Shown here in pieces: positions 19,641 to 41,041 of a DNA stretch of 64,000 nucleotides; positions within the stretch are counted from its first letter, which is position 1, and every line of letters begins with the position of its first letter. The translations under genes were made by a program, and so were the position numbers. The stretch covers positions 259,712-323,711 of the forward strand of contig CAZXUH010000001.1 in assembly GCA_964644035.1 (NCBI GenBank), given 5' to 3'. The notes below the pieces were generated by a model. That model was not told the DNA's origin. It was given only the letters and a program-made list of their open reading frames with translations, and did no database searches. Origin of the DNA: an uncultured Candidatus Saccharibacteria bacterium (lineage in GTDB: Bacteria; Patescibacteriota; Minisyncoccia; Phycocordibacterales; DAORIS01).

Positions 19641-19657
19641 TAATTATACCACATTTT
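19641..19657 (-). promoter_or_regulatory. Conserved phage extended -10 promoter, copy 1 (upstream of the collagen-fiber/glycosylation/fiber/lysis operon).
   Basis: Minus-strand reading is AAAATGTGGTATAATTA; the -10 hexamer corresponds to + coordinates 19643–19648. Confidence 0.55.
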
Positions 19658-19674
19658 CGAGTTTTTTGCCTCTA

Positions 19675-19866
19675 CTACCCATAGGGATTGACTGAAAATA
19701 AGTAGATGGAGTAAAATACGAGACAAGGTAGCACTGAGCGGAAGCTTGGGGTTACATTAGTAGGCCCATCAAGGGCATAATCAATTTTTTTATGACATTC
19801 ATAGCAAAATTGAGCAGTGCCATCTTGTGCCAGAGTGACTTGCCTTTTGCACAATAGGCTCGACAT
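19675..19866 (-). CDS. Hypothetical small ORF downstream of promoter copy 2.
   Basis: 63 aa with a 'CYECHK' motif and weak coding evidence. Confidence 0.15.
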   Translation of the reverse strand: MSSLLCKRQVTLAQDGTAQFCYECHKKIDYALDGPTNVTPSFRSVLPCLVFYSIYLFSVNPYG

Positions 19867-19995
19867 TAAGGATTTACTCTGGCCTGCGATATTGTGCCGA
19901 TGCTGAGCAACAGTAGGTGTACAAACTCAGAGCAACTCATCAAGTTGCCGAGAGGGGTCATGCAGATCACCACCAAAAATACAGGGGCTAGGTAC

Positions 19996-20046
19996 AAGAC
20001 AAAAGCCGTTAGAGTTGATACCTCTAGCGGCCTTTTGTTTTTTTGC
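19996..20046. terminator. Strong bidirectional intrinsic terminator hairpin.
   Basis: 10-bp stem GCCGTTAGAG/CTCTAGCGGC (one G·U pair) with a 7-nt loop. It is followed by CTTTTGTTTTTTT on + and preceded by an A-run, which reads as a T-run on the minus strand. Confidence 0.6.
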
Positions 20047-20075
20047 GGAAGCTTATTTTTGTAACGTTACACATA

Positions 20076-20092
20076 TAATTATACCATATTGA
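20076..20092 (-). promoter_or_regulatory. Conserved phage extended -10 promoter, copy 2.
   Basis: Minus-strand reading is ATATGGTATAATTATAT (-10 = + 20078–20083). It fires toward the terminator hairpin about 35 nt downstream. A plus-strand TATAAT (20075–20080) overlaps it divergently. Confidence 0.5.
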
Positions 20093-20112
20093 CTTATGGC
20101 GTGTAAGAGCTA

Positions 20113-20322
20113 TTGTACATACATATGGATAACTTTTTAAAACTACACTGGTTCAAAGTCGGTATCCTTATACTACTTGTCGGTATTCTTGGTCAACTTC
20201 TTTTTATAAATATGAAAATGGAATCTGCCTATCAAATGCAGGAGTATTTCATGCAACGTCAGGACACCAATATTGGTGCTTTAGTTGAGTACATTTTACA
20301 ATTTGAAGAACCATCAATATGA
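20113..20322 (+). CDS. Small membrane protein; one of only two plus-strand ORFs inside the prophage (moron candidate).
   Basis: 69 aa with one strong TM helix ('VGILILLVGILGQLLFI'). Confidence 0.35.
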   Translation: MYIHMDNFLKLHWFKVGILILLVGILGQLLFINMKMESAYQMQEYFMQRQDTNIGALVEYILQFEEPSI

Positions 20323-20471
20323 AAATGCTTATACATGTAGAGGGTTGGATACTCATGCTTTGTCCGATTATAGTAATTGTTGCAGTCATATTAGACTTTA
20401 GTTCAACAAATCTTATCCTAGCCTGCATAGCCCTACTTGTTTGGAAAATAGGAAATAACGCTTTAGATTGA
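20319..20471 (+). CDS. Small (50-aa) two-TM membrane protein overlapping the previous ORF by ATGA.
   Basis: Hand-translated as MKMLIHVEGWILMLCPIIVIVAVILDFSSTNLILACIALLVWKIGNNALD. It lies below the track's 60-aa cut-off. Confidence 0.25.
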   Translation: MKMLIHVEGWILMLCPIIVIVAVILDFSSTNLILACIALLVWKIGNNALD

Positions 20472-20472
20472 T

Positions 20473-23181
20473 TTATCTAAATAACTTCTTCTTGTCGTCA
20501 AAAGTGATCGATTCGTCCTTGTTGTGAATATAGTAAGAAGCACCATTCGTAATATCTTTAAATGTCTGCGAACCCAATTCAGCAAGTAACTTCTTAGTGA
20601 TGGCTTCTATCTCCTCAGCTTTCTTACCTCCCTTACCAGCCATGTATATATTATATTGCTTACCAGCATAGGCTTGGTATTGGTTCTTTTCACTAAGAAT
20701 CTGAGCAAGGGTTCGTTTGGTTCCCCTCTTTGAATGTTCCCTGATTCGGTTGAGAGCTGTGCCAAGAATGACACGTGCTTCCAATTCCTTCTTCTCTGTT
20801 GGACGATTACTAATTTCACCGTAGAGAATAGGTAGGAGAATATCCAAATCAGACTGAGTTATTTTAAGGTCCTGATCTTTGTATTTAGTTTGGACTACTG
20901 TGTTCTTTGGAAGGTCTACCTTCTTTGATCCTGTAGCTTGGATAGGTACTTCTGCCTGAGGTTTAGCTGGAAGGGTTTGAGGAGTACTTTCAGAAATCTT
21001 AGTGTCAGAAGCTGTGTACTTCTCCTTGCTTGGAAGCTGTGCAACTAAAGCTGCTGCACCCACTAGACCACCCGCACCCACAACAAACTTCTTAGAAGCT
21101 GAACCTTTCTGTAGGTTGACTTTATCTAGCTGTGATGGTATTTTATTTGGAACGCCACGTTCAGTATTACTAGGTAATTTATTATTTATGGAATTAGCAT
21201 TTTCTATAGCACTCGGAATATTATTGGTTCCAGTCTTGTTGCTTGTTATTGGTTTACTATTCAATATAGTCCTATCGCCTTTTGTGTTTGTAACTTGGCT
21301 TTTTGATAAGTTTATTGGTTTTTTAGCTTCAAGGCTTCCTAAAGCAGAGGCTCCTGTTGACGCAGAGGGTCCGGAAATAAACTCTTCTAATTTCTGAATC
21401 ATCTGTGTTTCAGGTAATTCTTTTTCTATTAACTCTTGAATCTTCTTTAGATTCTTTTCAAGAATAGCTTCTAGATCGAGTGCATTCATGGTTTTATAAC
21501 CCTGACCTCTAGGAATCATCTGTTCAACAAATCCTTTTATACCGCCACCAGTAATTTTATTAAGAATACTTGAGACGTTTCTACCTAATTTTTCGAATAG
21601 ACCCCTTTCAATTATCTTCTGTTGGAGATTATTTACACCTTCTTCTACCTTCTTAACAAGATCTCTGGTCCTAATGAGGTTTGATATTTCTTTGTCCGTA
21701 GCTTCATATATATCGTTTCCAAACAAATTACGAGCTGTACTCTTTAAACCTGCACGTGTATTTTCAAACGACTGGGCATTTACACTCGTAAACGGCTCAC
21801 CGGTCTTGCTGAAAGCTTTTGTACTAAACTCTGTGCCATGCAAACGAGCAAGATCATTCACTTCTTGAATAGTAATGCCGTTAGTTTTCGCATTATTCTT
21901 TAATTGATTTATTTTTGCTTGTCCAATCGGATCATTTGTCTTTTTATATAATTCCTCAAGTTGATTTATTGCATCATCAACATAATTATGTGAAACAACT
22001 TCCTCACCAACCTTTGTATCAAACTTTAGGTTATCAAGTAGTATTTTTTCCTTCTTAGTTGAAAGAACTTCATCAAGTTTTGTCTTTAATGTAGTAGCTT
22101 TATCGTTTAAAGCCTTTGTGAGGTCTTTATAGGTCTTTACACCATCAAAATCTATGTTTGATAATGCTTTCTTAGCACGAGGAATATCTGATATTTTTCC
22201 TTGAGTAATTTTTCCAACCAAATCATCAAATTGATTGACGGCTTTTGTAGCTCTCTTTTGCATCAAACTTGAAACTTTATTAGTACCCTCTGCAACAGCA
22301 GGGATAGCTACACCTGTTAGTGTCCCTAAGCCCGGAATAAGAGCTTTTTTACCAGTCCTGTCCTCACCTCTAGCACCTTGAAGTCCCTGCGCCACGTCAG
22401 ATGTGTAACCAATGGCTGCACCTCCTAATACCTTTTTAGCAGCACCTCCTTTACCACCAGCAATACTTGCGATTTTACCCAATTCCGGAGAGATAGCTGT
22501 AGCTGTTTTAATAACTGCACTACTCTTTTTGGGTATTACTTTGAAAGATTGAGCACCTTTTACAGCTTTTCCATAAGCTCCAGCCGTAAGAACATCTAGT
22601 GCAGTGCCACCAATTTCACCACCAACTTTTAAGTTTGATTTTTTAGTTGCAGATAAGTTCTCGTCAATAAATTTATTTACATCAAGTGATTCACCTGTGA
22701 GTTGGTTATATGCTTTTTCTAATCTTGAGGTATCCTTACCATTTTTTTTATTTTCCCTGATCCTTTTAATAAGATTCACTTTTATATCTTCCTGTCCCTG
22801 CTGAGCAGCAGAAAGTGCAGGAAGCGTATTCCTTGCAGCCAAAGACTCACCAATAGTTTTACCAAGTCCTACTTCCGATGATGCAATATTACCTACAAAT
22901 GCTTTACCGAAATTAGCAGCCATACCCCCAAAAGAGTTGGCTTTTTTAGATTCTTTTGCAGATGCTGCCGCTTCATTTTGAAGCTTTAATATCTTAGCTT
23001 TCCTATCCTCAGGCTGATTGTATTTAAATTCTTTAGACTCGATAGAAGCCTCTGGTTTCGTTCCATATTTAGCTTCGTACTCAGCACGTGTCATCTGGAT
23101 CGGCTCTGATTTCACAGGCTGAATAGGCGGAGGTGTTCCGTATTTAGCCTCGTATTCTGCTCTCGTCATTTGTATAGCCAT
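20473..23181 (-). CDS. Large internal virion/tape-measure-like protein with a C-terminal cell-wall hydrolase (SleB/Hydrolase_2-like) domain.
   Basis: 902 aa, Lys/Ala-rich with a central Gly-rich hydrophobic segment. The N-terminal motif 'IQMTRAEYEAKYGT' is duplicated. The C-terminal 'ELEARVILGTALNRIREH...QYQAYAGKQY' resembles the EARGE...VIxNR...QF pattern of SleB-type hydrolases. Positionally analogous to T7 gp16. Confidence 0.4.
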   Translation of the reverse strand: MAIQMTRAEYEAKYGTPPPIQPVKSEPIQMTRAEYEAKYGTKPEASIESKEFKYNQPEDRKAKILKLQNEAAASAKESKKANSFGGMAANFGKAFVGNIASSEVGLGKTIGESLAARNTLPALSAAQQGQEDIKVNLIKRIRENKKNGKDTSRLEKAYNQLTGESLDVNKFIDENLSATKKSNLKVGGEIGGTALDVLTAGAYGKAVKGAQSFKVIPKKSSAVIKTATAISPELGKIASIAGGKGGAAKKVLGGAAIGYTSDVAQGLQGARGEDRTGKKALIPGLGTLTGVAIPAVAEGTNKVSSLMQKRATKAVNQFDDLVGKITQGKISDIPRAKKALSNIDFDGVKTYKDLTKALNDKATTLKTKLDEVLSTKKEKILLDNLKFDTKVGEEVVSHNYVDDAINQLEELYKKTNDPIGQAKINQLKNNAKTNGITIQEVNDLARLHGTEFSTKAFSKTGEPFTSVNAQSFENTRAGLKSTARNLFGNDIYEATDKEISNLIRTRDLVKKVEEGVNNLQQKIIERGLFEKLGRNVSSILNKITGGGIKGFVEQMIPRGQGYKTMNALDLEAILEKNLKKIQELIEKELPETQMIQKLEEFISGPSASTGASALGSLEAKKPINLSKSQVTNTKGDRTILNSKPITSNKTGTNNIPSAIENANSINNKLPSNTERGVPNKIPSQLDKVNLQKGSASKKFVVGAGGLVGAAALVAQLPSKEKYTASDTKISESTPQTLPAKPQAEVPIQATGSKKVDLPKNTVVQTKYKDQDLKITQSDLDILLPILYGEISNRPTEKKELEARVILGTALNRIREHSKRGTKRTLAQILSEKNQYQAYAGKQYNIYMAGKGGKKAEEIEAITKKLLAELGSQTFKDITNGASYYIHNKDESITFDDKKKLFR

Positions 23182-24690
23182 TTAGTCGGTGATGATTATC
23201 TCTTGACCGTCAGGAGCTGTGATTACTTGCGAACCATCTATATTACTTGGTGATCCCCCGGGATTGTATCCACCACCAACATAACCTGTATCAATTCCAA
23301 ATTTCTGTGCATAACTTACTGCCCTTGATTTTTCCTCATCTATAGAAGCTTGGGCTTTCTTTGCGAATGTATTACCCAAATTAACAAACTCATTCAATGA
23401 AGCTGGTGTCAAACCTGCTCCACCTTGCATGATTCTCTGTGCCTTTCCTTCTAGTTGAGCAAGGAATGACTGGCCTTCTGGAGAACGTGCATATTCTGAT
23501 TCTCTAACAACTGATGTTGGGTCAAGAATCTTGTTGAAGTTAGTGATAACTACTTGGGAAGTTGCATTTAAATCTTTTACCTCACCACGGTTATATCGGT
23601 CTAATGCTTGTTGAGCAAGACTAGCTCGATTAACTACCTCTTTACTTGCCTTGACTAAGTTATCCACTTTCGCACCTAATGTAAGACCCCCCTGAAACTG
23701 CTGATAGGGTGTAAGACCACCTGCTCCGGCTCCCGCAACTTTTGCTTTTCTATTTGCATCTTCATTTTGGTATTCAGTAAACGAACCTGTGTATCCATTT
23801 TGTTTTGCAAACTCGTATTCCTCGGCAGAAGCTGGAATCTTTGGGTTACCACTTGCAATCAAATTTCCTTTTGAGTCGTAACGATTTTGACCTTCTGAAA
23901 GCGCAAATCCGTTATCAATATCTTCTGCATCCTTTGCTCGCTTTGCGGTCAAATATGAAGTCTTAATATCCCCTTCTGATACTCCGTATGATGTAGCGAT
24001 CTTTTGAAGTTCACTTGGGTCAATGTCCTCAGGTGAAAGACCTTGTAATAGAAGTGCTTGGCCAAGTTCCGTGAGCTTTCCTTGTTTTCTCTCCTTTGAT
24101 GAAGTGAGGAATTTAATATATGAATCAGCACCTTCTTGTTTAGCTTTAGTTTTGGCAGCAATTTCATCTACTGATGCTTGGTCCGCTTTTCCCAAGATAG
24201 CTGAAATAGTAGCCATCTGTTGATCCCTAATGCTGTTTGTAATATCTGTATTGTATGCAGTGACCTTATCAGTCTGAGCTGCACCGAAGTCTGATCCCAA
24301 AAGACCGCCACGGGCTTGTGAAGCACGGGAAGTACCAAGTCGGCCTTGTCCTTGAAACGCTGCCTCAGCAATTTTATCAGCATATACTCTATTAGTTGCA
24401 TCAATTTCAGCCTGAAAACGTCCAAGTGTTGCTCGTCTAATGTTGTCTTCGTTTACGTCTGAGTTCGCAAGTCCTTCGTAGTACGAACCAATTTTATTTA
24501 ACGAAGCATCCCCTGCATCCGGAGTTGGGGCCTGAAATGGTTTATACATCTCACCAACTGTAGGGTTAGTCGGAGATGCCACTGGTGTAGATGTTGGGTC
24601 ACCAATCTTTTGACCAGTGTTCATGTTGTAAATAGATTGCTGATCCCCCGGCCGTAGAAGCTTTCCTGTATTGTAGTCGTATCTATCCAT
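23182..24690 (-). CDS. Virion structural protein (internal core or tail protein).
   Basis: 502 aa within the structural module; no motif assignment. Confidence 0.35.
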   Translation of the reverse strand: MDRYDYNTGKLLRPGDQQSIYNMNTGQKIGDPTSTPVASPTNPTVGEMYKPFQAPTPDAGDASLNKIGSYYEGLANSDVNEDNIRRATLGRFQAEIDATNRVYADKIAEAAFQGQGRLGTSRASQARGGLLGSDFGAAQTDKVTAYNTDITNSIRDQQMATISAILGKADQASVDEIAAKTKAKQEGADSYIKFLTSSKERKQGKLTELGQALLLQGLSPEDIDPSELQKIATSYGVSEGDIKTSYLTAKRAKDAEDIDNGFALSEGQNRYDSKGNLIASGNPKIPASAEEYEFAKQNGYTGSFTEYQNEDANRKAKVAGAGAGGLTPYQQFQGGLTLGAKVDNLVKASKEVVNRASLAQQALDRYNRGEVKDLNATSQVVITNFNKILDPTSVVRESEYARSPEGQSFLAQLEGKAQRIMQGGAGLTPASLNEFVNLGNTFAKKAQASIDEEKSRAVSYAQKFGIDTGYVGGGYNPGGSPSNIDGSQVITAPDGQEIIITD

Positions 24691-26234
24691 TAGATTTTGA
24701 TGATGTAGTTAAGAACAAGGAAAGGATTCATGACATTCATAGCTGCGTTACCTCCTTTTGAACTTGGATTAGCAGAAGCAGCATCGTTAGTACTTGAGAG
24801 TGCAACAGAGCCTGAGTTGAATGTACCTGTAGCACCATGCGTGTGAGCCAAAAGTTCTGTAACAGACATGGCATGATTTTCTTCACCACCAGTTGTACCA
24901 GCCGTTCGAGCTGTGAGTGTGAGAGTGAATGTTTGTGTACCTGTGCCATCACTTGAAAGTGAGATGACTGTACCGTTTTGAGCGTTTGCTAGAGATGTAG
25001 CAAGTGAGAACGTTAAGTTACTTACACGAACAACATAGTAAGTTGTGTTGTCTGTGAGACCTGTCATAGCACCAGATGGAGCTGCATAGAGCACCGCCTG
25101 ACCAGTCTGAAATTCATTGTTTGCAGCATTTGAAAGACCGGTAACTGTAATGACGTTTGAGGAACGTGATGCAAATGTTGCAACCTTAGTAGGTGCTGTA
25201 CCTGCACCAAGAACCGATCGTGATCGGAGATCAGGAAGATTGAACGTTGTTGAGCCGTTACCTACTCCGTATGTAGTGCTTGTAACAGCAAAGAGTGCAG
25301 CGTAAGTTGTTCTTGAAACTGCCGAGCCATCACAGAGTAGAAAGCCCGTTGGAGCTGCTGAACCTGCGTAAGGAATTACGATACCTGTAAGAGCCGTGTA
25401 GTTTGTAAGAAAATCCTTTTCTAGTTTTGTAGGCCAATAGATTTCCTGAGGTGTGAACTTGATTGTTGTTGTATTGACTGCGACACCAAGAAAGACAGTA
25501 TTTGTGCCACCGCTTGTGACTACAGCTCCTGCTGTGTTTGATAGGAAGTACTTAGTACCAGCACTTAGTCCTGAAAAGTTTGCTGCAAGACCGGAAAGGA
25601 GAATGGTTACTCCTGCACCACCTGCGGCTGTGCCTTGTGCAACACCGAGTTGGACCTGATCAAAAGTAGCTGAGAGATCAGCGTCAGCTTTCCACCAACG
25701 TTGATCCGATTCTTTAAAATAGACAATGTTACCGGCAACAAGTGATTCACCTGCTGTGGCTGAGATTGTTTGAGATGAGAAAGAGACTGCGCCGCCATTA
25801 ACAACTGACAAAACGTAGGCCACGGTAGCAACTTGTTTAGGATCAGTCAGTGTTGGGGCTGTGTCATATGAAAGAGGAGTAGTACCATCGAGTGTACCTG
25901 TCCCTCGAAGTATGTCAGCCAAGTATCGAATATGTGCGAAATCAGTAAGAGTTACCTTTGCGCCAATTTTATGTAGTCGAGCAGCACCAGTAGTCTCAAC
26001 TCCCTGTCTAGAAATAGACTTAAGATCAGTAAGAGCAGTACTTGTAAGTTGGCAAGAGAAATGTTCTCTGCGACCGTTATCACGATCAACAGTAAAAAAG
26101 TAGCGGCCTGTTGGAAGGGCTACTCCATCATCGTCTGTTGCTGATTGTAGGGTTGCTGTTGTATCCCCTACATTGATTTTCGTAGCCAATGCTGTCTGAA
26201 AATCTGCTACTACCGTACCGAGTTGAGTTGACAC
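24690..26234 (-). CDS. Virion structural protein, fiber/spike-like (Thr/Gly/Ser/Ala-rich β-rich composition).
   Basis: 514 aa, the first gene after promoter copy 3; composition typical of fibers and tailspikes. Confidence 0.35.
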   Translation of the reverse strand: MSTQLGTVVADFQTALATKINVGDTTATLQSATDDDGVALPTGRYFFTVDRDNGRREHFSCQLTSTALTDLKSISRQGVETTGAARLHKIGAKVTLTDFAHIRYLADILRGTGTLDGTTPLSYDTAPTLTDPKQVATVAYVLSVVNGGAVSFSSQTISATAGESLVAGNIVYFKESDQRWWKADADLSATFDQVQLGVAQGTAAGGAGVTILLSGLAANFSGLSAGTKYFLSNTAGAVVTSGGTNTVFLGVAVNTTTIKFTPQEIYWPTKLEKDFLTNYTALTGIVIPYAGSAAPTGFLLCDGSAVSRTTYAALFAVTSTTYGVGNGSTTFNLPDLRSRSVLGAGTAPTKVATFASRSSNVITVTGLSNAANNEFQTGQAVLYAAPSGAMTGLTDNTTYYVVRVSNLTFSLATSLANAQNGTVISLSSDGTGTQTFTLTLTARTAGTTGGEENHAMSVTELLAHTHGATGTFNSGSVALSSTNDAASANPSSKGGNAAMNVMNPFLVLNYIIKI

Positions 26235-33786: not shown

Positions 33787-35265
33787 TTAAATACCTATAT
33801 CTGGGTACAAAGGCTTGTCTTCCACATAATCATCAACGATTTTGTATGGCGGTTCAGCAATTTGTAACTGATATGCAAGTGAATCAGCACAGTCGTCATG
33901 TACTCCCTTGGGAAAGCGTAGTAATTCACCCTCTAGATCGCTTGTTTTGCCCTCTAGGTGATAGATATGACCCGCTTCGTACTTAGGTATAAGACCTCGA
34001 ATGCGAGTTTCTTTCATTATTCCACCGTGCTTGAGCTTTACAATGTATGGATACTTATTCCTGACCCGACATTCATCTTGGAAGAATGGTTCTACCGCTT
34101 GAGTGAACGCACCTTCTTCAATTCCAATCTTCTCAAACCCATCATCATGAAACTGGAAGATCAGGTCCACTAAAGACTTGGAGTTAATCTTGTACTGACG
34201 TGATTCGATATTCCAATCGTTAGCTTCAGTGACATAGTTCTTGGTGATACCTGTATTATCTGAATCAGCATTACGAGTGAGAGCCGAATCGATTGTAACG
34301 AACTTACGAAGACGCATATCCTTAAGGTCCTCAAGTTTTCTCACCTTCCAGTCCTTCTTATGGAACTCCTGTGTTGCTTCATCTATGGGTTGATTCATCA
34401 TTTCTGCACTGAATACCTGTGAGCCAAGCTGACGCTTCTTGTCCTCAAGTGATACTTTATTGGTTAACCTTGCTTCCTCGTCAGTCATAGCATACTTGGC
34501 TGGCCATGTGGGTTGTCCATCTTTAATGACTGGTACGGACCGGATCAATAGCCTATGGTCCGTCTTAGCCCGATCAATAAGAGTTTGGATTGAACCGTAT
34601 TCAGTGATGTAGTTACCGAGGTATAGGACTAGAGCAGTGGAATCTAGACCTGCTTTGAACTCATCAATATGTTTTATGACTTGCTCAGTATATGCTTTAG
34701 AATCCTTTGTTTTGTTCGTCTCGAAGTCGTCGAGTAATAGGAAATCAGGTCTTTGCTCAGCGTGTAAGCGTCCTCGAACAGATTCTTGGGTAGAATGAGC
34801 TTCGACTCGGACCCCGTTGTTGGTGAGGAAGTTGTTAACTCTTTTTTGTGTGATCTCGTCAGGGTTTTTCTTTGCATTGAATAGCTCACCAAAGTCTGAC
34901 TTAATCAGATCGTTGGTTTGGAGTTCCAGTACTATGTCGAATAGGATACGTTCAGCATTCTCCTTATCAAACGAGTCCACGTTCACGTACTTACGCTTCT
35001 TGTAGAGGATGATCCATGTCAGTAATCCCTTAGAGAGTGATGTCTTAGCTGATTCACGGAACATAATCCATGCAGCCTCACGATACTTGCCATCGAACAA
35101 GTCCTTAACATCCCCAAACATTTCGTAGTGGAAGGGAGCGTAGGGGTACTTAACGTATTTGAGAAAGTAGTAGCAGAAGAACAATGAGAAATCCTTTGAG
35201 CATAGGTATCTTCGCTCCTCTGGTGTGCCGTTTATTACCCGATCTAGTGCTGCTTTATTTATCAT
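33787..35265 (-). CDS. terL: Terminase large subunit.
   Basis: 492 aa with an N-terminal ATPase-like region. The C-terminal nuclease region contains the acidic 'GVHDDCADSLAYQLQ' motif typical of terminase RNase-H-like domains. It is adjacent to terS and portal. Confidence 0.6.
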   Translation of the reverse strand: MINKAALDRVINGTPEERRYLCSKDFSLFFCYYFLKYVKYPYAPFHYEMFGDVKDLFDGKYREAAWIMFRESAKTSLSKGLLTWIILYKKRKYVNVDSFDKENAERILFDIVLELQTNDLIKSDFGELFNAKKNPDEITQKRVNNFLTNNGVRVEAHSTQESVRGRLHAEQRPDFLLLDDFETNKTKDSKAYTEQVIKHIDEFKAGLDSTALVLYLGNYITEYGSIQTLIDRAKTDHRLLIRSVPVIKDGQPTWPAKYAMTDEEARLTNKVSLEDKKRQLGSQVFSAEMMNQPIDEATQEFHKKDWKVRKLEDLKDMRLRKFVTIDSALTRNADSDNTGITKNYVTEANDWNIESRQYKINSKSLVDLIFQFHDDGFEKIGIEEGAFTQAVEPFFQDECRVRNKYPYIVKLKHGGIMKETRIRGLIPKYEAGHIYHLEGKTSDLEGELLRFPKGVHDDCADSLAYQLQIAEPPYKIVDDYVEDKPLYPDIGI

Positions 35266-35615
35266 AATGCAAGCTTGCGCATATCCTCCAAGTGCTTCTC
35301 AGTCGCTTCAAGTTTCCCTTCAAGATAGCCTTGTTTTGGTTTGATACCAATATTATTAAGAGCATCAGCAAATACTTGTAATTGATCTAGTGTCAATTCA
35401 AGCGTTGGTTTTGATACCGCCACACCACGATGAACAGTCTCGCCGTCAAGAAACTCTACCTTTTCACCTATCTCACGAAATATGTACACATCTTTAGTGA
35501 GTTTGTACCCACTGTCTACAATTTTTATGTTCCATTCATTATTGTTCATATTGTGCTGGTACTGAGAATTGAACTCAGTCTCACTGTTTGGAAAACAGTA
35601 GTGCTGCCGTAACAC
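35262..35615 (-). CDS. Hypothetical protein.
   Basis: 117-aa ORF overlapping the terL start. Confidence 0.3.
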   Translation of the reverse strand: MLRQHYCFPNSETEFNSQYQHNMNNNEWNIKIVDSGYKLTKDVYIFREIGEKVEFLDGETVHRGVAVSKPTLELTLDQLQVFADALNNIGIKPKQGYLEGKLEATEKHLEDMRKLAL

Positions 35616-35623
35616 TTCACCAA

Positions 35624-35827
35624 CTATGCATAGTAAACTCCCTTAGTCGCCTTCTTGTTTGATTTCCAATTCCTTATCTTTCTTTGGACTTTATGAGCCA
35701 TACGAACGCCATGCTTTCTAACATACTTGCATTGAGTGCAATGACAAACACCGAGGGGGTTTCCCCTTCCTTGTGGTCTACCCTTCATAGGCTTCGACTT
35801 TGGGTTGTGTGCAATCGTTCTACTCAT
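35624..35827 (-). CDS. Small, very basic protein with a CHC..QC motif.
   Basis: 67 aa; its start codon lies 2 nt downstream of the tRNA-like gene. Confidence 0.25.
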   Translation of the reverse strand: MSRTIAHNPKSKPMKGRPQGRGNPLGVCHCTQCKYVRKHGVRMAHKVQRKIRNWKSNKKATKGVYYA

Positions 35828-35828
35828 G

Positions 35829-35900
35829 CGGGACCTGTGGGATTTGCACCCACAACCGCTTAATCGACAATCAAGTGCTCCACTGTTGAGCTAAGGTCCC
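35829..35900 (-). tRNA. Phage-encoded tRNA-Asp(GUC)-like gene with a non-canonical T-loop.
   Basis: Hand-folded cloverleaf with acceptor GGGACCU/AGGUCCC, a D-arm, the anticodon arm CUUGA-UUGUCGA-UUAAG (anticodon GUC), and T-arm GUGGG-UGCAAAU-CCCAC. Position 55 is G instead of U and CCA is not encoded. Confidence 0.55.
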
Positions 35901-36487
35901 TAACACAGTGCGTTTCAGCATCTATAACGCACAAACTGTTTTCAGTGTACCGCCATGATATTTCAGACGCTCTTTGTGAAGATAGCGAGGATTTGACAAG
36001 TTGCAAACTACTTTCTAAGGTGGGCATCGCTCCCACTGCCTACTTGTATAGTCACCTCGCATGATTGGCTCACCACGGAACGGCATACCAATCTCTGTCC
36101 GTTTACCCCATAGCGTCTACACTTTTCCGCCATATCTTCACAGAAAGCACCTAAATGAACTGATGGGGAGGTTCCTACCTTTAGAAGATGTTGCTGGTTA
36201 CCCATGCAGCAACCGGACTCGAACCGGTATTACTCCCCCCATCAAATCACTTACATGTTCATGGACAGTTGGGGAAAAGGAGTACTGCTCTCTTTAGAAA
36301 GGACTAATATGAGACTTAGTGCACCTATCTCTCAAAGCCAAGCCGTTCCCCCAACAATCCACGAAAGAGAAGCAGAGAGGGAAAGGGTAGTAAATCGCTA
36401 CGCAAGTTTTTTAAGCCTACCCCTGCTTACTATAAGTATTATTTGCGTAATAATTTAACCACAATAAGGATTCCCCTCCCTACTTCC

Positions 36488-37045
36488 CTATCCAAGTAAC
36501 TGATCCAGTCGCTGCCTTTCTTCCTCAGATAGGCCAGTAACTTTAATCTCCTTCCTTTCGATAACACGATTTTTAACCTTGTTGTACTCTGATATAGCTC
36601 TCATCTTTGAACCTAGGTCCCTATTCTGCAAAATCACTTTTGATATTTCTGCATCAACGTTGTGATCGGTCAGCATCTCATTGAGCAACACACTTAGTCT
36701 TTGGTCAATCTTGGGATTTCTTAGAAGCTTACTGGCCCCAGAAGCACATATATTACACATAACATCATAGGTAGATGGTCGAACGAGCTTTCGCTTCTTA
36801 GATGCCTTAACTGGTTCATCTAATTCAGAATCAGCATAGTCTTCACCCTCTACTTCATCTACTACAAACTCATACTCGGCGTCATTTCTGTTGGCACTAT
36901 CAAGGTCATAGCCATAGGCCTCAGCATACGAGAGCGTCCCATTGCCAAATAACTCAGTGTTCTGTGTGTAGAAACGACAAAAGGCCTCTTGCTTGAGAGT
37001 CAGTTCGTCGCCTATTTTGTTTTCATCTATGAGTAGTTCAGTCAT
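36488..37045 (-). CDS. terS: Terminase small subunit.
   Basis: The N-terminal 'LTLKQEAFCRFY...GNGTLSYAEAYGY' matches the Terminase_2/small-subunit HTH pattern; it lies upstream of terL. Confidence 0.6.
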   Translation of the reverse strand: MTELLIDENKIGDELTLKQEAFCRFYTQNTELFGNGTLSYAEAYGYDLDSANRNDAEYEFVVDEVEGEDYADSELDEPVKASKKRKLVRPSTYDVMCNICASGASKLLRNPKIDQRLSVLLNEMLTDHNVDAEISKVILQNRDLGSKMRAISEYNKVKNRVIERKEIKVTGLSEEERQRLDQLLG

Positions 37046-37310
37046 GTTTTACTAAGTTGTTGTCTACGATTACTTGGAATAAGGCGTTTGATAGGAACTC
37101 AATTCGTTCCTCAGTGAAGTTGTGGTTGATTGCATGTAGGACTTCATGTATGACTGTCTCAAGCTTCTGGCTCTCTGGTAGGTCATCTCTAATGAGTATC
37201 GTATTGCGGCTTCGGTTGATTTCACCACAGTTTCCATTGATCTTCTCAGAATCAACGAGTTCTACTTTATATACGTGACCACCGATCTTAAGTGTTTCTG
37301 GTATTACCAT
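37038..37310 (-). CDS. Small hypothetical protein with an HExxH motif.
   Basis: 90 aa containing 'HEVLHAINH'; a possible mini zinc-metallopeptidase-like fold or coincidental. Confidence 0.25.
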   Translation of the reverse strand: MVIPETLKIGGHVYKVELVDSEKINGNCGEINRSRNTILIRDDLPESQKLETVIHEVLHAINHNFTEERIEFLSNALFQVIVDNNLVKHD

Positions 37311-37311
37311 G

Positions 37312-37632
37312 TTATTTTTTGTTAAGTGCTAACCAGAATTTTGCAACTGCAACATCTAGATTTGGGTCAAAGATAAAAACTTTCCAATCAAGAGGATTTA
37401 GACTTCCTTCTGTATCTTGGCCAACAATCCATCCATCTTCACCCTTATAGCTTCCTTGTCGTATTGTCCATAAATTCTCCCCACATGCTTCTATAAGCTC
37501 TGAGAGAGTTGGATAAGAAAGCTGTTCGACATCTTTAGGAGTATTAAGAATTTCATTCTGAAAATAAATCCTTAGTGGGTCTTGAGGGTAGCCAGAATCT
37601 TTAAGTTGTTTTGCGAGTTCGTAAGTTACCAT
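37312..37632 (-). CDS. Hypothetical protein.
   Basis: 106-aa ORF. Confidence 0.3.
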   Translation of the reverse strand: MVTYELAKQLKDSGYPQDPLRIYFQNEILNTPKDVEQLSYPTLSELIEACGENLWTIRQGSYKGEDGWIVGQDTEGSLNPLDWKVFIFDPNLDVAVAKFWLALNKK

Positions 37633-38270
37633 ATAATTGATTTATTATGTTGAGCTATTACCGAAGTATCTGCGTATGCTTTGAATCCTAGGCCAATAGC
37701 TTTAGCTATGAAGTGTGTGTCTTCCCCCATGAATATATCTTTGCCTCTGTCATCCTTGTAGAGGAAGCGATACCAAGGCTTAGGCATTTTTTCAAAGACT
37801 GCTCTTTTAATGAGAACACATGAGCCACCGCATCCTTTGATCTGAATTAGCCCTACATTTGGCTCAGTGAACTTGTCATTCATATCCACAGCATTCCATT
37901 TCTTGTAGTAGCCATTTGATTCATTCTTCCTGTTAGCATCGTGCTCTATGATGGGGGTAATGCCTGAGACAATATCCTTATCATGCGAGAGTAGTTTATA
38001 GAGTGCATCCATAGGCGGAATCGTATCTGAGTCTATAAAGAACAGGTGTGTGCAGTCTGATTGAAGAAACTGTTCAACGATCTCGTTACGGGCATTGTCT
38101 ACCGGACACACTGCCATCGTAGGATATATGGACATATTTATATCTCCTTTCAATTGAGCTTGGGCCATCCACTGTAGGACGGTCATAGCAAGAAAAGTAT
38201 GCATACTTCCCATTGTGGGGATTCCTATGAGTATCTTTGGCTTCATGACATTTTGTGACGTAGATTCCAC
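37626..38270 (-). CDS. GT-A fold glycosyltransferase (DxD).
   Basis: 'ILIGIPTMGS' and the 'FFIDSDTIPP' DxD region. Confidence 0.5.
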   Translation of the reverse strand: MESTSQNVMKPKILIGIPTMGSMHTFLAMTVLQWMAQAQLKGDINMSIYPTMAVCPVDNARNEIVEQFLQSDCTHLFFIDSDTIPPMDALYKLLSHDKDIVSGITPIIEHDANRKNESNGYYKKWNAVDMNDKFTEPNVGLIQIKGCGGSCVLIKRAVFEKMPKPWYRFLYKDDRGKDIFMGEDTHFIAKAIGLGFKAYADTSVIAQHNKSIIW

Positions 38271-38389
38271 GGGGTTCTTTTATATATTTTCTTAGACCTC
38301 CTAAATATTGCGTTGGTAAATTCGATTCCCCTTGCTTGGCATAGTGCTTTAATAGTTTGTCGCAAAGCTTTTGATTTTTTCTCGCTCAT

Positions 38390-38959
38390 TTATGTAAAGT
38401 TAGTTGCCTTCCTCTTGCTAAATAGTTTGCTGTCATGCTCGTAGTTATCTGTATTCAGGACGATCTTGTATGTCTCATCCATAGGAGCCTTTCCATTGTT
38501 GACGTGGTTGTGTTGAATCTTTGCACTTGGTACAAAGATAAGTTTGCCTTCGCTTCTAAGTCGTTCTGTAAACTCATTATCTGAGAAGTTGTGGATGTAT
38601 CCTTCGTGTAAGTATTTTCGTATTGTGTCTGTATGAGCTAAAGGATGTTGGCAAAGTTTTTCTCCATGTAATTCATTGAAAGGTTCTGCTGCACCGTCAC
38701 CTTTTGGAAAGGCGGTAATGAACGTATTCCAAAGATTCCAGAGCCAATCTTTCTCGACAACTGTATCGCTCCCTAAGACCACTACGTATCCGTTGATTCC
38801 TTGAAGTGCGTTATGAATTGCTTTTACCCAACCTCCATCTGCGTTTTCATAGATCACTACACAATGCTGGACGTTCTGTGTGTGTTCCTCGATAGATGCA
38901 AGTAACTCTTTAAGTCTTGGTCGGCGATCCTTGGTTGTTGGTATGAGGATATAGATCAT
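38390..38959 (-). CDS. Glycosyltransferase family 2-like protein.
   Basis: 'MIYILIPTTKDR' N-terminus typical of GT2-like enzymes; 189 aa. Confidence 0.4.
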   Translation of the reverse strand: MIYILIPTTKDRRPRLKELLASIEEHTQNVQHCVVIYENADGGWVKAIHNALQGINGYVVVLGSDTVVEKDWLWNLWNTFITAFPKGDGAAEPFNELHGEKLCQHPLAHTDTIRKYLHEGYIHNFSDNEFTERLRSEGKLIFVPSAKIQHNHVNNGKAPMDETYKIVLNTDNYEHDSKLFSKRKATNFT

Positions 38960-39537
38960 AGTTTGACGTATCTCTGTAAGAGAGTTATTCCATGCCTGAC
39001 TGCCCTGTTTGAGTGGAAGTGAATTTGCTGGAACTCTGGGTATGCTTCCTTGATCCAGTTAACGAATGTCAGTTCATCCGGACAGTGGACCCATTCTTTC
39101 TTCTCATTCATATGTCCGAACTCTGCGTTGAAGACATTGCCCCCTATCCATGTACCTGTGTCGTGGACTGCGATGATAGCCTTCTCAGTCAGATCAGGAA
39201 GCATCTTGATAAATGTCTGCTGGTTTAAACTAAGATCATGAGAAGCATCTAAGAAAGCAAAATCAATATTTCTAACATCTACCTCCTCCTGTGACTTGCG
39301 ATAGAAGTGAAAGCGTTGATCTGCGAATACTGGTTGCTTGGTGTTGTCGTAGCTGTGAAGTTCTGAATCGTGATCCATCACTTCGAGCATTTTCATTGCT
39401 GACTTACCCCAGAAGTGTCCAATCTCCACAACAATCTTAGGGTTAGTCATTCGTATCACTGCCTGTAAGAGAAGTGCATCCTCATCAAGTAGCGGCCCCA
39501 ATTCAATATCTCCAAAATAATTACTTCTCATCTCCAA
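38956..39537 (-). CDS. Class I SAM-dependent methyltransferase (Methyltransf_24/TylF-CmcI-like).
   Basis: 'VVEIGHFWGKSA', 'AFLDASHD' (DGDH-like) and 'IAVHDTG'. Pattern paralogous to 16339–16899. Confidence 0.45.
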   Translation of the reverse strand: MEMRSNYFGDIELGPLLDEDALLLQAVIRMTNPKIVVEIGHFWGKSAMKMLEVMDHDSELHSYDNTKQPVFADQRFHFYRKSQEEVDVRNIDFAFLDASHDLSLNQQTFIKMLPDLTEKAIIAVHDTGTWIGGNVFNAEFGHMNEKKEWVHCPDELTFVNWIKEAYPEFQQIHFHSNRAVRHGITLLQRYVKL

Positions 39538-40076
39538 GTTCCTTTGTATTTAGTTATTAAACCGTTATAGAGAACCATGTTCTGTCTTCCATGTTTTATT
39601 TCAAAGATTTCACTCTGAATCGGTAGTACGGGATCAAACTGTAAAGCGTTTGGATCAAGCTTTAAGTACTCCATGTTCCAATGATGCTCTGCGGTGATCG
39701 CTGCTTCCTTATTATCAATCTTTGGAATCCCTATAGCATCGAGGACAGACTTTTTATACTTTCCTAGATATGAATAGAAGCCGGGTGAGAGATGGACTGA
39801 GCCTTCATAGTCAAAGAGCATGTCGAGTAACTTTGGTTCCTTTAAGACGCACGTGTCCATAAGGTGAACAAATTCCGTGAAGATCTCAGCCCCACGCAGA
39901 ATTCCCCCAAGTTCAAACCCATTCCAATCATTGATAACGTTATACGTTCCTTCGATCTCAGGTTTGTATCCACCGTTGGATACAATAAGGACCGGATACA
40001 TATCAGGGATTGAATCAAAACATTCCTTAAGCCAATCTTTAGTATGTTCAGATGTAGTGATTACTATTCCTCTCAT
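39528..40076 (-). CDS. Hypothetical protein within the second glycosylation cassette.
   Basis: 182 aa with no motif. Confidence 0.3.
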   Translation of the reverse strand: MRGIVITTSEHTKDWLKECFDSIPDMYPVLIVSNGGYKPEIEGTYNVINDWNGFELGGILRGAEIFTEFVHLMDTCVLKEPKLLDMLFDYEGSVHLSPGFYSYLGKYKKSVLDAIGIPKIDNKEAAITAEHHWNMEYLKLDPNALQFDPVLPIQSEIFEIKHGRQNMVLYNGLITKYKGTWR

Positions 40077-40912
40077 TTTGTCTCTGCTCCCGTAAGGAGA
40101 TTAAACCATCGTGTTCTGAGTTTTTCGTATTCTATGAAGTAGTCTCCTTCCCCATATTTTTCATTCATCGATACTCCCCTTGCTTCTTTTTGTAAGTTGA
40201 TAAATGGATCACTTGCCCTGTTGTGATGAACTGTAGCGTATCCGGTGACAGCAGCCCAACCTCTCGCATCTATAACTTTCTTCACTTCTATACCACTCCA
40301 TATATCTGCAAAACGATTAATGTTTCCATACATAGGAGCTTGGTAGAAGTACGGTGTCAGTTCTCGCTTAAACGCCACGTTCATAATGCACATAGGAAAG
40401 AGTACTCCCTTAGGGATAGGCATTCTTCGAGGAGTGACCTCAGGTGTTCCGATAACTAACTGAGTTGAAGCATCGAAGTCTGCCACTCCTTTCCACGCAC
40501 CATGAGATAGGACACATTCTGATTCATCTCTGAGGCTGTAAGGGAAACCTCGCATAAATACTTCATGGACTGTATTCATCCATGATATAGGGTATTTCTT
40601 TGAAAGAGCATCTAGGTGATCTTGAATTGTATCCCCATCTGGCAGAACATCGTCGTCAAGGGAGATGATAATATCCGCACCATCTTTGTATGCTTGATAG
40701 AAACCAAGATTACGGACACCATCATTGAAGTTGTAGATAAGGTCCTTATCCTTCCCCATCACACTCTCAAGTGTCGTACCATTCACAGTTGGATTTTCTC
40801 CATCTTTGACAATGTACAAACTGACGTTATGTTTTTTGAATAGAGATTCCCACGCCTCAAGAAACTTTTTAAGCTGTTCTTCCCTAATCGTCGGTACGAC
40901 GACTGCTATCAT
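40073..40912 (-). CDS. Reversibly-glycosylated-polypeptide/UDP-arabinopyranose-mutase-like (GT75-like) protein.
   Basis: The N-terminus 'IAVVVPTIREEQLKKFLEAWESLF' matches the RGP family 'IVIPTIR...FLE.W..FF' signature, and a DxD-like 'LDDD' region is present. Confidence 0.4.
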   Translation of the reverse strand: MIAVVVPTIREEQLKKFLEAWESLFKKHNVSLYIVKDGENPTVNGTTLESVMGKDKDLIYNFNDGVRNLGFYQAYKDGADIIISLDDDVLPDGDTIQDHLDALSKKYPISWMNTVHEVFMRGFPYSLRDESECVLSHGAWKGVADFDASTQLVIGTPEVTPRRMPIPKGVLFPMCIMNVAFKRELTPYFYQAPMYGNINRFADIWSGIEVKKVIDARGWAAVTGYATVHHNRASDPFINLQKEARGVSMNEKYGEGDYFIEYEKLRTRWFNLLTGAETK

Positions 40913-41024
40913 TTACTGACAACTATCGCAAAGCGCTGCTTCCGCAGGATCGACAGGACAAACTGGCTGGTTATTGCTAACTGGATTTGATACTTGTGAT
41001 GTTTCTTGATTCATAAATAGTTAG

Positions 41025-41041
41025 ATTAGTGTATATATTAT
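41025..41041 (-). promoter_or_regulatory. Conserved phage extended -10 promoter, copy 6 (upstream of the GT75-like/glycosylation cassette 2 operon).
   Basis: Minus-strand reading is AAAAAATGGTATAATATAT (-10 = + 41027–41032). Confidence 0.5.

Follow-up and report, generated by a model that had tools for sequence, protein, structure and literature searches.

The 64,000-nt window analysed here carries an integrated prophage of ~40.3 kb, whose long genes all lie on the minus strand. The prophage was delimited by a related, prophage-free contig (L219/L220) from a near-identical host, which matches window positions 5264-7734 (100% identity) and 47997-64000 (99.98%), the two matches overlapping by 18 nt. 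Judged from this empty site and its 99.98-100% identical flanks, the integration is real and recent. The host is an ultra-small Paceibacteria (CPR) bacterium and the prophage is temperate and podovirus-like, with a portal and an adaptor of the SU10 type (SU10_portal and SU10_adaptor matches).

Six extended -10 boxes in the prophage

The features on which the analysis turns are as follows, with the six boxes labeled S1 to S6.

7723..48014, minus strand: integrated prophage
7723-7734 and 48003-48014: 12-bp direct repeat ATATTGTGCGAC (att core) flanking the prophage
7907-8770: integrase gene (Pfam match)
18907-19602, minus strand: collagen-like fibre gene (tail-fibre PHROG matches), then a GT2/methyltransferase block
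19643-19651, minus strand: S1, type A (context AAAATGTGGTATAATTAATAG, 19637-19657), 40 nt 5' of the collagen-like fibre GTG (19602)
20074-20083: palindrome TATAATTATA at S2, which also yields a plus-strand TATAAT facing two small membrane-type ORFs
20078-20086, minus strand: S2, type B (TGGTATAATTATAT), best -35 CTTACA at 18 nt
20113..20471, plus strand: two overlapping small hydrophobic ORFs (69 aa and 50 aa), divergent from S2
24690-26234, minus strand: 514-aa tail-collar fibre gene (collar domain match), then 502-aa and 902-aa genes
26272-26280, minus strand: S3, type B, in the gap between the 634-aa gene upstream (stop 14 nt away) and the collar fibre gene downstream (GTG 26234, 37 nt away)
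30127-30870, 28879-30090 and 28200-28835, minus strand: scaffold, major capsid and adaptor genes, which with the 634-aa gene are headed by S4
30976-30984, minus strand: S4, type B, best -35 TTTTCA at 18 nt, 105 nt before the scaffold ATG (30870)
33756-33764, minus strand: S5, type A, between the large terminase (stop at 33787, 22 nt away) and the portal gene (ATG at 33716, 39 nt away), which is succeeded by 143-aa and 110-aa genes
40913-41014, 40073-40912 and 36488-37045, minus strand: 33-codon ORF, the RGP/GT75-like glycosyltransferase gene that it abuts, and small terminase gene, headed by S6 together with a methyltransferase, GT genes, two tRNAs and the large terminase
41037-41045, minus strand: S6 (AAAAAAATGGTATAATATA), overlapping the stop codon of an upstream 87-aa ORF and 22 nt before the 33-codon ORF
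45563..45575, minus strand: GATAAT hexamer TGGTCGATAATTA, 26 nt before the ATG of the first gene past a 720-nt gap

An exact search for the 9-mer TGGTATAAT returned these six copies and no others in the window, all on the minus strand and within the prophage as an earlier note on this DNA had claimed, whereas 300 dinucleotide shuffles gave a mean of 0.44 copies and a maximum of 3. Every copy is on the coding strand in an intergenic gap or at the edge of one, and gene junctions account for little of the prophage; no copy was found in the early region (41-48 kb). A repeat search recovered the boxes independently as families D15, D18 and D19. When one mismatch was allowed in the 9-mer, the count was at the level of chance (14 matches vs 15.8 expected).

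All six sites have TG one base 5' of a consensus TATAAT and five of the six match the longer Gram-positive form T-R-T-G-n-TATAAT. A good -35 element was sought at a spacing of 16-18 nt and none was found, the best match to TTGACA being 3-4 of 6, which bears out the absence of a -35 asserted earlier. The copies fall into two subtypes, type A at S1 and S5 (identical over 21 nt) and type B at S2, S3 and S4 (14-18 nt), and they have in common an A-tract at -18 to -22 and a TTA that follows the hexamer. Describing the extended 17-mer AAAATGTGGTATAATTA as strictly conserved was nevertheless an overstatement: it is exact at 19641 and 33754 only, with one mismatch at 26270, two at 30974, three at 20076 and more than three at 41037. 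With up to three mismatches the 17-mer has six matches against 0.31 expected, a number reached in 0/100 shuffles, although one of the six is an unrelated site at 3161. The box assigned to the GT75 cassette had been placed at 41027, 10 nt away from its actual position, and the supposed degenerate seventh copy near 45555 proved to be the GATAAT hexamer at 45563-45575, which lacks a correctly spaced TG and is not an extended -10 element. It is a possible early promoter.

Host promoter-like boxes and orthologous sites in related phages

Two promoter-like boxes in the host flank resemble the prophage motif, in agreement with the earlier note.

3201..3209, plus strand: box TGATATAAT directly 5' of gltX, its -10 box 6 nt from the ATG
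5862..5870, plus strand: box TGTTATAATTAATAAATG (also read as TGTTATAATTAATA), 5' of a 46-codon ORF and a DUF3999-like gene

The second shares TATAATTAATA with S1 and S5, and TGnTATAAT also precedes other host genes in the flanks. Several host -10 boxes lie 5-9 nt from the ATG, and the position of the gltX box suggests that its transcript is leaderless or has a very short leader. The exact TGG variant occurs 0 times in the 35.9 kb of host DNA that made up the whole comparison sample and six times in the 40.3 kb of prophage (p = 0.03), whereas TATAAT alone is equally common in the two (28 and 26 copies, respectively).

In the 94 related loci that were scanned, TG.TA.AAT shows a 3.4-fold preference for the coding strand (280 vs 82). 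Syntenic extended -10 boxes lie within 250 nt upstream of the portal gene in 30 of 79 relatives, the scaffold gene in 17 of 74 and the collar fibre gene in 19 of 57, as compared to a background of 0.057 per 250 nt; the corresponding counts are 2/94 for capsid, 1/74 for the 634-aa gene and 1/64 for the 110-aa gene. These positions are kept despite sequence that has otherwise diverged, and the same type of box also precedes early-region genes in relatives. The 17-mer is missing from the closest relatives (79-85% capsid identity), which have other boxes at these positions (TATACT, TACAAT, TGATACAAT); the exact sequence is therefore evolutionarily labile. Neither the A-tract nor the other flanks are conserved in relatives. 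It had been proposed that the motif could be used to find related phages, but a degenerate 17-mer run against viral contigs picked out 120 loci, none with a relative of the capsid, portal, scaffold or terminase.

The scaffold promoters of relatives, whose -10 box lies at a fixed distance from a conserved leader, could be aligned by anchoring on that leader. Among 28 distinct orthologous promoters, those with TGn have a mean -35 match of 2.8/6 and those without TGn a mean of 4.0/6, the latter including perfect TTGACA elements at 16-17 nt (one-sided Mann-Whitney p = 0.006, with shared ancestry uncorrected).

Predicted transcription units and structured leaders

The following RNA features are predicted downstream of the boxes.

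19603..19624, minus strand: collagen-fibre leader hairpin GUAAUGAA-CGGGGA-UUCAUUAC, ending directly before the GTG (z = -2.05)
19993..20071, minus strand: predicted short S2 transcript of ~75 nt, ending in hairpin GCCGCUAGAG...CUCUAACGGC plus UUUUGU
20005-20031: S2 terminator hairpin, also called as a terminator in the plus-strand direction
26238..26257, minus strand: leader hairpin GGGUUAAUUCGAACUAACCC between S3 and the GTG, with ACGGGG (26255-26260) partly in its 5' arm
30093..30116, minus strand: capsid hairpin GGGGAUAUU-AGAUUA-AAUAUCCCU, bearing ACGGGG (30113-30118) and ending 2 nt 5' of the capsid ATG (z = -2.9)
30871..30969, minus strand: structured 5' leader of the scaffold mRNA, three helices over ~100 nt (covariance model R1)
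30947-30960, minus strand: its helix H1, GAGCA-GGGA-UGCUC, preceded by ACGGGG
30923-30937, minus strand: its helix H2, with a window-specific UUCG hairpin insert at 30913-30922
30889-30902, minus strand: its helix H3, followed by AAAGGUGA and the ATG
33719..33736, minus strand: portal leader hairpin AGUGGAC-GGGG-GUUCACU, with GGGG in the loop, ending 2 nt before the ATG (z = -3.65)

A terminator scan found no terminator before any of the sites except the hairpin at 20005-20031, so the idea that the motif organises the prophage into operons and marks unit boundaries is not supported. With no terminators between the blocks, most sites are likely to serve as internal promoters whose outputs add up along a single long array of genes read in one direction. 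Five functional blocks would be headed by boxes: glycosylation and packaging (S6), portal (S5), scaffold, capsid and adaptor (S4), collar fibre and large tail proteins (S3), and the collagen-like fibre with a second glycosylation block (S1). Such internal promoters would raise the mRNA supply for portal, scaffold/capsid and fibres.

S2 is the exception. The box was thought to serve a short leader, but no gene lies behind it and transcription would run into the terminator ~45 nt further on. The predicted transcript folds at -19.3 kcal/mol (z = -3.0), and has no Rfam match and no homologue in the 221 loci compared. S2 may also form one side of a bidirectional promoter whose other side serves the 69-aa and 50-aa plus-strand ORFs. 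These two, which have no relatives among the loci compared, may represent an accessory pair acquired by insertion (a "moron") if they are real genes. The late promoter P_R' of lambda is constitutive and fires into a nearby terminator, tR', to give 6S RNA unless Q acts. S2 shares with it a consensus promoter and a strong hairpin with a U-run ~45 nt on. Unlike P_R', however, S2 is accompanied by no Q-like antiterminator that we could find, S1 provides a full promoter for the next gene 435 nt downstream, and the region has no homologue in relatives.

The transcripts would begin with short structured leaders whose hairpins display or sequester a Shine-Dalgarno-like GGGG by the start codon, whereas most other genes of the phage are without any Shine-Dalgarno sequence. 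The scaffold transcript would begin with the three-helix leader, for which model R1 found 36 of 99 sources (the window and 98 related loci), once each and always just 5' of the scaffold gene. Its helices covary strongly: pairing is 94.9% vs 62% in shuffles, with 114 double-change cells vs 31, and 0/500 shuffles reach either value. No Rfam model matched it. The portal-type hairpin architecture recurs with different stems in 13 of 67 distinct relatives, as compared to 0-8% at nine other genes. No promoter box accompanies the capsid hairpin, so capsid and scaffold genes probably share a transcript. Known structured leaders include the hairpins of T4 genes 38 and 25, which draw the Shine-Dalgarno close to the AUG, 5' stabiliser stem-loops in Bacillus mRNAs and the hairpin translational operator of the MS2 coat protein. 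The leaders described here resemble these in adjoining the start codon, in carrying a G-rich Shine-Dalgarno-like element and in having stems that covary between relatives, although no Rfam model covers their sequence family. Their probable role is to set how fast the mRNA is translated or how stable it is.

Recognition of the boxes

In bacterial promoters, sigma region 2 recognises the -10 hexamer TATAAT and region 3.0 a TG one base upstream, and because of the latter contact a -35 box is unnecessary. Primary-sigma promoters of this extended -10 (TGn) kind include E. coli galP1 and those of the cysG type, and the "-16 region" form T-R-T-G-n-TATAAT is found in Bacillus subtilis and other Gram-positive bacteria. 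The class is reportedly treated by Barne et al. in 1997, Voskuil and Chambliss in 1998 and Mitchell et al. in 2003. The prophage boxes share its hallmarks: TG before TATAAT at all six sites, T-R-T-G at five, a poor or absent -35, co-oriented placement just 5' of genes, and interchangeability of TGn and -35 across orthologous promoters. They differ in being predicted promoters of a temperate CPR prophage (we found no experimental promoter data for Paceibacteria) and in that copies within one genome share more flank than the class requires. On this sequence evidence the six boxes are probably extended -10 promoters for host RNA polymerase carrying the primary sigma factor (sigma-70/SigA-type). 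The dependence on host polymerase put forward in the earlier note is likewise supported by the syntenic boxes, the trade-off between TGn and -35, and TGnTATAAT before host genes. That support does not extend to the middle/late timing also proposed there. Searches of the phage ORFs with Pfam, PHROGs and NCBIfam gave no match to a sigma factor or RNA polymerase domain, which counts as weak evidence since most phage proteins match no family. In all likelihood the phage relies on ordinary host RNA polymerase. Nevertheless, near-consensus constitutive promoters before virion genes are a puzzle, since a silent prophage would hardly be expected to have them; in addition, the common flanks (A-tract, TTA and the S1/S5 identity) exceed known polymerase contacts, and S2 has no gene behind it.

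An unlikely alternative is that these are phage late promoters needing a phage-encoded factor, either a very divergent sigma-like protein or an activator bound upstream, with the resemblance to the host consensus reflecting partial mimicry; this would explain silent virion genes in the lysogen. T4 late promoters consist of the -10-like TATAAATA only and are read with gp55/gp33; phiEco32 encodes its own sigma factor, gp36-dependent middle/late promoters being read from a -10-like element alone; and the -35-less phi29 late promoter A3 is served by activator p4 bound upstream. The prophage is similar in having a short, -35-less element of the -10 type that recurs before late genes only, virion genes among them, with no TGGTATAAT in the early region, and in its SU10-type portal and adaptor, SU10 itself belonging to the phiEco32-like group. 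The flanks common beyond polymerase contacts and the lack of the exact TGG variant in host DNA fit such a factor, which could hide among early proteins that mostly have no recognisable family. In contrast to those systems, however, hexamer and TG together equal the host consensus, carried by host genes, rather than a phage-specific variant, and neither a sigma-like protein nor a match to an activator family was found among the phage proteins. At the orthologous scaffold promoter, relatives have canonical -35/-10 pairs, and their replacement of TGn by TTGACA at 16-17 nt only fits primary sigma. Moreover, relatives have the same type of box before early-region genes and do not conserve the A-tract.

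Less probable still, and an addition to recognition by host polymerase rather than a replacement for it, is that the extra conservation reflects overlapping sites for a DNA-binding protein such as a prophage repressor or silencer. A stably integrated prophage must silence strong promoters, the palindrome TATAATTATA is present at three sites, and the two subtypes are sharply defined with identity well past the -10/TGn. However, no repressor gene or operator was identified in the prophage, relatives have no conserved flank, the palindrome is TATAAT followed by TATA and is easily produced by an AT-rich discriminator, and recent duplication of a promoter cassette within one genome would give the same pattern. 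A chance origin of the copies from AT-rich sequence, or their descent from a short repeat that has no role in transcription, is very improbable: the genome is AT-rich (~58% A+T) and neither TATAAT alone nor the one-mismatch 9-mer is enriched, but the excess of exact copies, their coding-strand placement in gene junctions and the conservation of their positions in diverged relatives argue against it.

Recognition by the host primary sigma factor is the reading that we favor, and the boxes appear to be real, mostly ordinary promoters of a known kind. The host and the structured leaders are less ordinary than the motif itself.

Borders and gene content of the prophage

Look-ups with the DnaB and FtsW proteins led to a near-identical host contig from another sample, SRR14271360, that lacks the prophage (L219/L220), which matches the window over 5264-7734 at 100% and over 47997-64000 at 99.98% identity. 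These two segments abut in L219/L220 with an 18-nt overlap, and the intervening 40.3 kb is therefore an insertion. The attachment core is a 12-bp repeat, ATATTGTGCGAC, at 7723-7734 and 48003-48014, and the empty site is L219 2454-2471. The attachment repeats were not among the top families of a repeat search, and the borders came from the empty-site contig. Integration occurred in an intergenic site, not in a tRNA gene, with a DUF3999-like gene on one side and a small SLT-like gene on the other. The host flanks carry mraY, ftsW, murG, gltX, rpmA, rplI, cysS and dnaB, and the DnaB protein, encoded on a 568-kb contig, has its closest named relatives in Candidatus Pacebacteria, Paceibacterota and Parcubacteria. 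Within the insert are genes for an integrase, the two terminase subunits (small and large), an SU10-type portal and adaptor, collar and collagen-like fibres, two glycosyl-/methyltransferase blocks, two tRNAs and an NGO0469-type replication initiator, with every long gene on the minus strand. It represents a temperate podovirus-like phage, apparently intact, of a bacterium of the CPR (Patescibacteria, ultra-small bacteria), and a megablast search with a 23-kb region found no match among public phage genomes.

Several other features of the insert were observed. The phage SLT-like protein (9091-9471, minus strand) is clearly similar to the product of the host gene adjoining the attachment site (48276-48755, minus strand), and the genes for a 740-aa and a 535-aa protein (11606-15437, minus strand) have long imperfect acidic D/E/T-rich repeats in common. 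Two non-coding gaps (35901-36487 and 45539-46261, minus strand) contain the tRNA T-arm-like sequence GGTTCGAnTCC, in one case with an acceptor-like 3' end behind it; neither ARAGORN nor Rfam returned anything for the gaps, and neither gap has a homologue among the 221 fetched loci. Possible identities are tRNAs that are degraded or split by an intron, and RNAs of unknown type. A perfect DnaA-box-like sequence, TTATCCACA(G), stands beside both attachment sites and upstream of the integrase gene (7762-7770, plus strand; 8825-8833, minus strand; 48041-48049, plus strand), and in related loci the motif forms tandem pairs just upstream of early-region -10 boxes (L136 1653/1674, L140 126/137 and L201 1918/1928). 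Its candidacy as a promoter-associated motif was rejected, since TTATCCACA occurs 17 times in the window against 17.9 expected and is not enriched.

Extended -10 boxes and the polymerase that probably reads them

The 64-kb window contains exactly six copies of TGGTATAAT, all of them on the minus strand, against a mean of 0.44 and a maximum of 3 in dinucleotide shuffles, and the repeat search independently recovered the sites as families D15, D18 and D19. All six boxes are at gene junctions, and five of them lie 22-105 nt ahead of a start codon in the same orientation:

19643, minus strand: S1, before the collagen-like fibre gene, in the 870-nt gap that separates this gene from a 902-aa gene
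20078, minus strand: S2, in the same 870-nt gap
26272, minus strand: S3, 14 nt past a 634-aa gene, before the gene for the 514-aa collar fibre
30976, minus strand: S4, 83 nt past a 110-aa gene, before the scaffold, capsid and adaptor genes
33756, minus strand: S5, 22 nt past the large-terminase stop, before the portal gene
41037, minus strand: S6, on the stop codon of an 87-aa ORF, before RGP/GT75 glycosylation and packaging genes

The core observation of the earlier note, six copies on the coding strand, is thus real; five of its coordinates stand, and the sixth, reported as 41027, reflects a 10-nt slip. Its description of a strictly conserved 17-mer does not survive, as AAAATGTGGTATAATTA is exact at only two sites, has one, two and three mismatches at three others and exceeds three mismatches at 41037. 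The supposed degenerate seventh copy, at 45563-45575, is a GATAAT hexamer that lacks a TG at the right spacing. The copies instead comprise two subtypes:

Type A, AAAATGTGGTATAATTAATAG: 19637-19657 and 33750-33770
Type B, TGGTATAATTATAT: 20073, 26267 and 30971, including the perfect palindrome TATAATTATA

The six-site consensus is aAAAT.TGGTATAATTA, with a stretch of 85% A+T on the 3' side of the hexamer. At all six sites the TATAAT hexamer is exact and directly preceded by TGG (placing TG at -15/-14), and T-R-T-G stands ahead of the hexamer at five. Matches to TTGACA at a spacing of 16-18 nt reach at best 3/6 (four sites) or 4/6 (the other two), so that the -35 element is weak or absent. On unrelated viral contigs (L011, L041, L046, L068, L080, L082 and L120), TGGTATAAT occurs three to four times on one strand within 7-12 kb, so this phage family is not alone in having consensus extended -10 boxes in repeated copies.

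From sequence comparison, the best-supported reading is that the boxes are read by the host primary-sigma factor. The hexamer, the TG, the weak -35, the placement upstream of genes, the usage by the host and the compensation between the -35 and TGn (the extension one base upstream of the -10 hexamer) are all shared with the extended -10 class. In the small sample of 35.9 kb of host DNA there are three TGnTATAAT and seven TGnTAnAAT sequences, and those inspected lie upstream of genes; the resemblance to host promoters claimed previously is confirmed by gltX (TGATATAAT), the ORF at 5862 (TGTTATAATTAATA) and dnaB (TGATAAAAT), which carry the same class of box. The -10 boxes of the host genes at 1851, 3213, 49324 and 57960 stand just 5-9 nt ahead of the ATG, an arrangement that points to leaderless mRNAs being frequent in the host. 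The exact TGG variant is found six times in the prophage and not at all in the 35.9 kb of host DNA (binomial p = 0.03), a difference that fits within-genome copying or tuning and not a different promoter class.

Further evidence comes from 28 distinct relatives in which the orthologous -10 box is fixed by the scaffold leader. The mean -35 score of these scaffold promoters is 2.8/6 with TGn and 4.0/6 without it (one-sided Mann-Whitney p = 0.006, with shared ancestry ignored), and two promoters without TGn have a perfect TTGACA at 16-17 nt. Such a trade-off between TGn and the -35 element is textbook behavior of sigma-70 promoters. No sigma factor or RNA polymerase domain was found in phage ORFs of at least 90 aa searched against Pfam, or in the ORFs scanned against PHROGs and NCBIfam, these searches having limited sensitivity for very divergent proteins; the host rpoD/sigA gene is absent from both the window and L219/L220. 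Dependence on host RNA polymerase, as the earlier note proposed, is thus supported by host usage, by the trade-off and by the lack of a detected phage sigma factor or polymerase domain. This differs from the late promoters served by T4 gp55 and phiEco32 gp36: a phage sigma-like factor or a phage RNA polymerase was not found here, and the element is of the host type, TGnTATAAT, instead of deviating from the host consensus.

Under this model, the host primary-sigma polymerase would bind TGn and the -10 element with no need of a -35, transcripts would begin at six sites spread over the late half of the phage and add to read-through from upstream, and translation or stability would be tuned by the structured leaders. 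This model has one main difficulty: promoters of this kind should be active in the lysogen, and no repressor, operator or antiterminator was found in the phage. An activator encoded by the phage and acting at the boxes would accord with the flanks common to the copies, with the palindrome and with the lack of the motif in the early region; we consider an activator unlikely. A silencer at the boxes, for which the same flanks, palindrome and early-region absence can be cited, is less probable still. The sole regulatory hints are weak matches to a "transcriptional regulator" PHROG at 47136-47417 (E = 7e-4) and to an ImmA/IrrE-like protein at 37038-37310.

Promoter positions along the prophage and in related phages

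The earlier note had taken the promoters as boundaries of operons or regulatory units, a view with which the distribution of terminators disagrees. A scan of 18000-37900, a range that takes in S1-S5 and ends short of S6, detected no minus-strand intrinsic terminator upstream of S1, S3, S4 or S5, and these boxes would therefore be internal promoters in one co-directional array and not the starts of bounded operons. The sole strong hairpin followed by a T-run in this range is at 20005-20031, approximately 45 nt downstream of S2, and scores on both strands. S2 has no downstream gene on its own strand; its predicted RNA (from about 20071 to 19996) consists of a short leader and this terminator hairpin (z = -3.0) and has no Rfam match. 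The palindromic S2 box also yields a TATAAT on the plus strand, facing two small hydrophobic ORFs at 20113-20471, and the region has no homologue in any of the 221 fetched loci. One possibility is an accessory block of genes, acquired by insertion and served by a bidirectional promoter; another is a small-RNA gene.

Each of the two glycosyl-/methyltransferase cassettes (36488-41014 and 15428-19602, minus strand), which include an RGP/GT75-like enzyme, is behind one promoter, and one of them comes after the collagen-like fibre gene; these cassettes may serve to glycosylate virions or to alter the surface of the host. A GC-rich hairpin lies 3' of the capsid gene (28836-28878, minus strand) and is also present between the capsid and adaptor genes of close relatives. 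Attenuators that fix how much capsid is made relative to the downstream proteins usually lie at this position, after the capsid gene.

More than 1,700 homologues of the capsid protein exist, many of them on contigs of 38-41 kb, and 98 related loci were fetched through this protein (80 viral contigs, 11 MAG contigs and 7 contigs with close homologues). In 94 related loci (1.22 Mb), the coding strand has 280 copies of TG.TA.AAT and the other strand 82. The motif is found within 250 nt upstream of 30/79 portal, 17/74 scaffold and 19/57 collar fibre orthologues (background 0.057), and upstream of 2/94 capsid, 1/74 634-aa, 1/64 110-aa, 4/47 143-aa and 4/47 terminase genes. Since boxes recur upstream of the portal, scaffold and collar fibre genes, these three promoter positions are features of the family. 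The promoter sequences, unlike the positions, differ among members: where this phage has its boxes, the closest relatives, at 79-85% capsid identity, carry TATACT, TACAAT, TGATACAAT or plain TATAAT. The motif also failed as the proposed probe for related phages, as the degenerate 17-mer retrieved 120 scattered loci from viral contigs, none of which has the capsid, portal, scaffold or terminase of this phage. In many relatives the box stands 6-9 nt ahead of the ATG, a spacing suggestive of leaderless mRNAs.

Contigs of this phage family are found in MAGs labelled Bacteroidetes, Polynucleobacter, Methylobacter and Gammaproteobacteria (L124, L127, L131 and L132; GTDB) and others are binned in Paceibacterota, Parcubacteria, Saccharibacteria, Gracilibacteria and Kaiserbacteria; the former placements look like mis-binned phage contigs.

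Structured leaders and the meaning of the promoters

Most phage genes (window 8-48 kb) lack a Shine-Dalgarno sequence. ACGGGG is enriched in number (21 versus 10.9 expected), 7-8 of its 13 prophage minus-strand copies are in 5' leaders, and CGGGG by itself shows no enrichment. We rejected ACGGGG as an independent DNA motif, since its spacing to three start codons (9-10 nt) and the GGGGG that relatives' fibre genes often have 8-10 nt ahead of the ATG fit a Shine-Dalgarno-like role better; given the latter, the G-run looks like a Shine-Dalgarno analogue that is displayed or masked.

The portal leader (33719-33736, minus strand) forms the hairpin AGUGGAC-GGGG-GUUCACU, with GGGG in the loop and its end 2 nt from the ATG (z = -3.65). 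The same design with different, covarying stems is present in 13/67 distinct relatives, versus 0-8% at nine other genes. In the collagen fibre leader (19603-19624, minus strand), GUAAUGAA-CGGGGA-UUCAUUAC, the G-run is likewise in the loop, immediately 5' of the GTG, and in the capsid (30093-30116, minus strand) and collar fibre (26238-26257, minus strand) leaders it is in the stem.

The scaffold leader (30871-30969, minus strand) is about 100 nt long with three helices and is conserved in relatives. A covariance model built from 15 sequences gave one match each in 36/99 sources, the window and 35 related loci, always at the same position (e.g., L196 5187-5288). On an alignment fitted to the model, 94.9% of cells are paired, compared with 62% in shuffles and 35-55% in slid controls, and there are 114 double-change cells compared with 31 in shuffles. 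Only tRNAs passed Rfam 15 gathering thresholds across the whole window, with no match for the leaders, and permissive Rfam scans of 30800-31100 and 19550-20500 gave only chance-level matches. On this comparative evidence, the scaffold leader is a candidate for a new cis-regulatory RNA of a large phage family. We tentatively propose, as a possibility well short of even odds, that the promoters are the front end of promoter-leader cassettes, through which a large undescribed family of podovirus-like CPR phages would control portal, scaffold/capsid and fibre genes post-transcriptionally by conserved RNA structures. These structures could be operators for a phage protein, as in autoregulation by the scaffold or portal protein, or they could be ribosome-recruitment devices in hosts mostly without Shine-Dalgarno sequences.

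Podovirus-like CPR phages are already known through metagenome surveys, a recent one of which nowhere mentions promoters, and we found no experimental promoter data for CPR bacteria, which are almost entirely uncultured. The finding is a familiar promoter class in an unfamiliar host, and the motif itself says nothing new about transcription. The window does provide a well-delimited prophage with an empty-site control, together with comparative evidence that ordinary primary-sigma rules (-10, TGn, the -35 trade-off and frequent leaderless starts) hold in a CPR lineage and its phages, evidence that can help to predict promoters in, and to annotate, thousands of CPR genomes and phage contigs. Of more interest than the promoters are the exact borders, the sigma-70 rules in CPR phages and the conserved leader RNAs. 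If the genes are indeed controlled through promoter-leader cassettes, the scaffold leader would be a new class of cis-regulatory RNA, and the conserved leaders are the part that could open something new.
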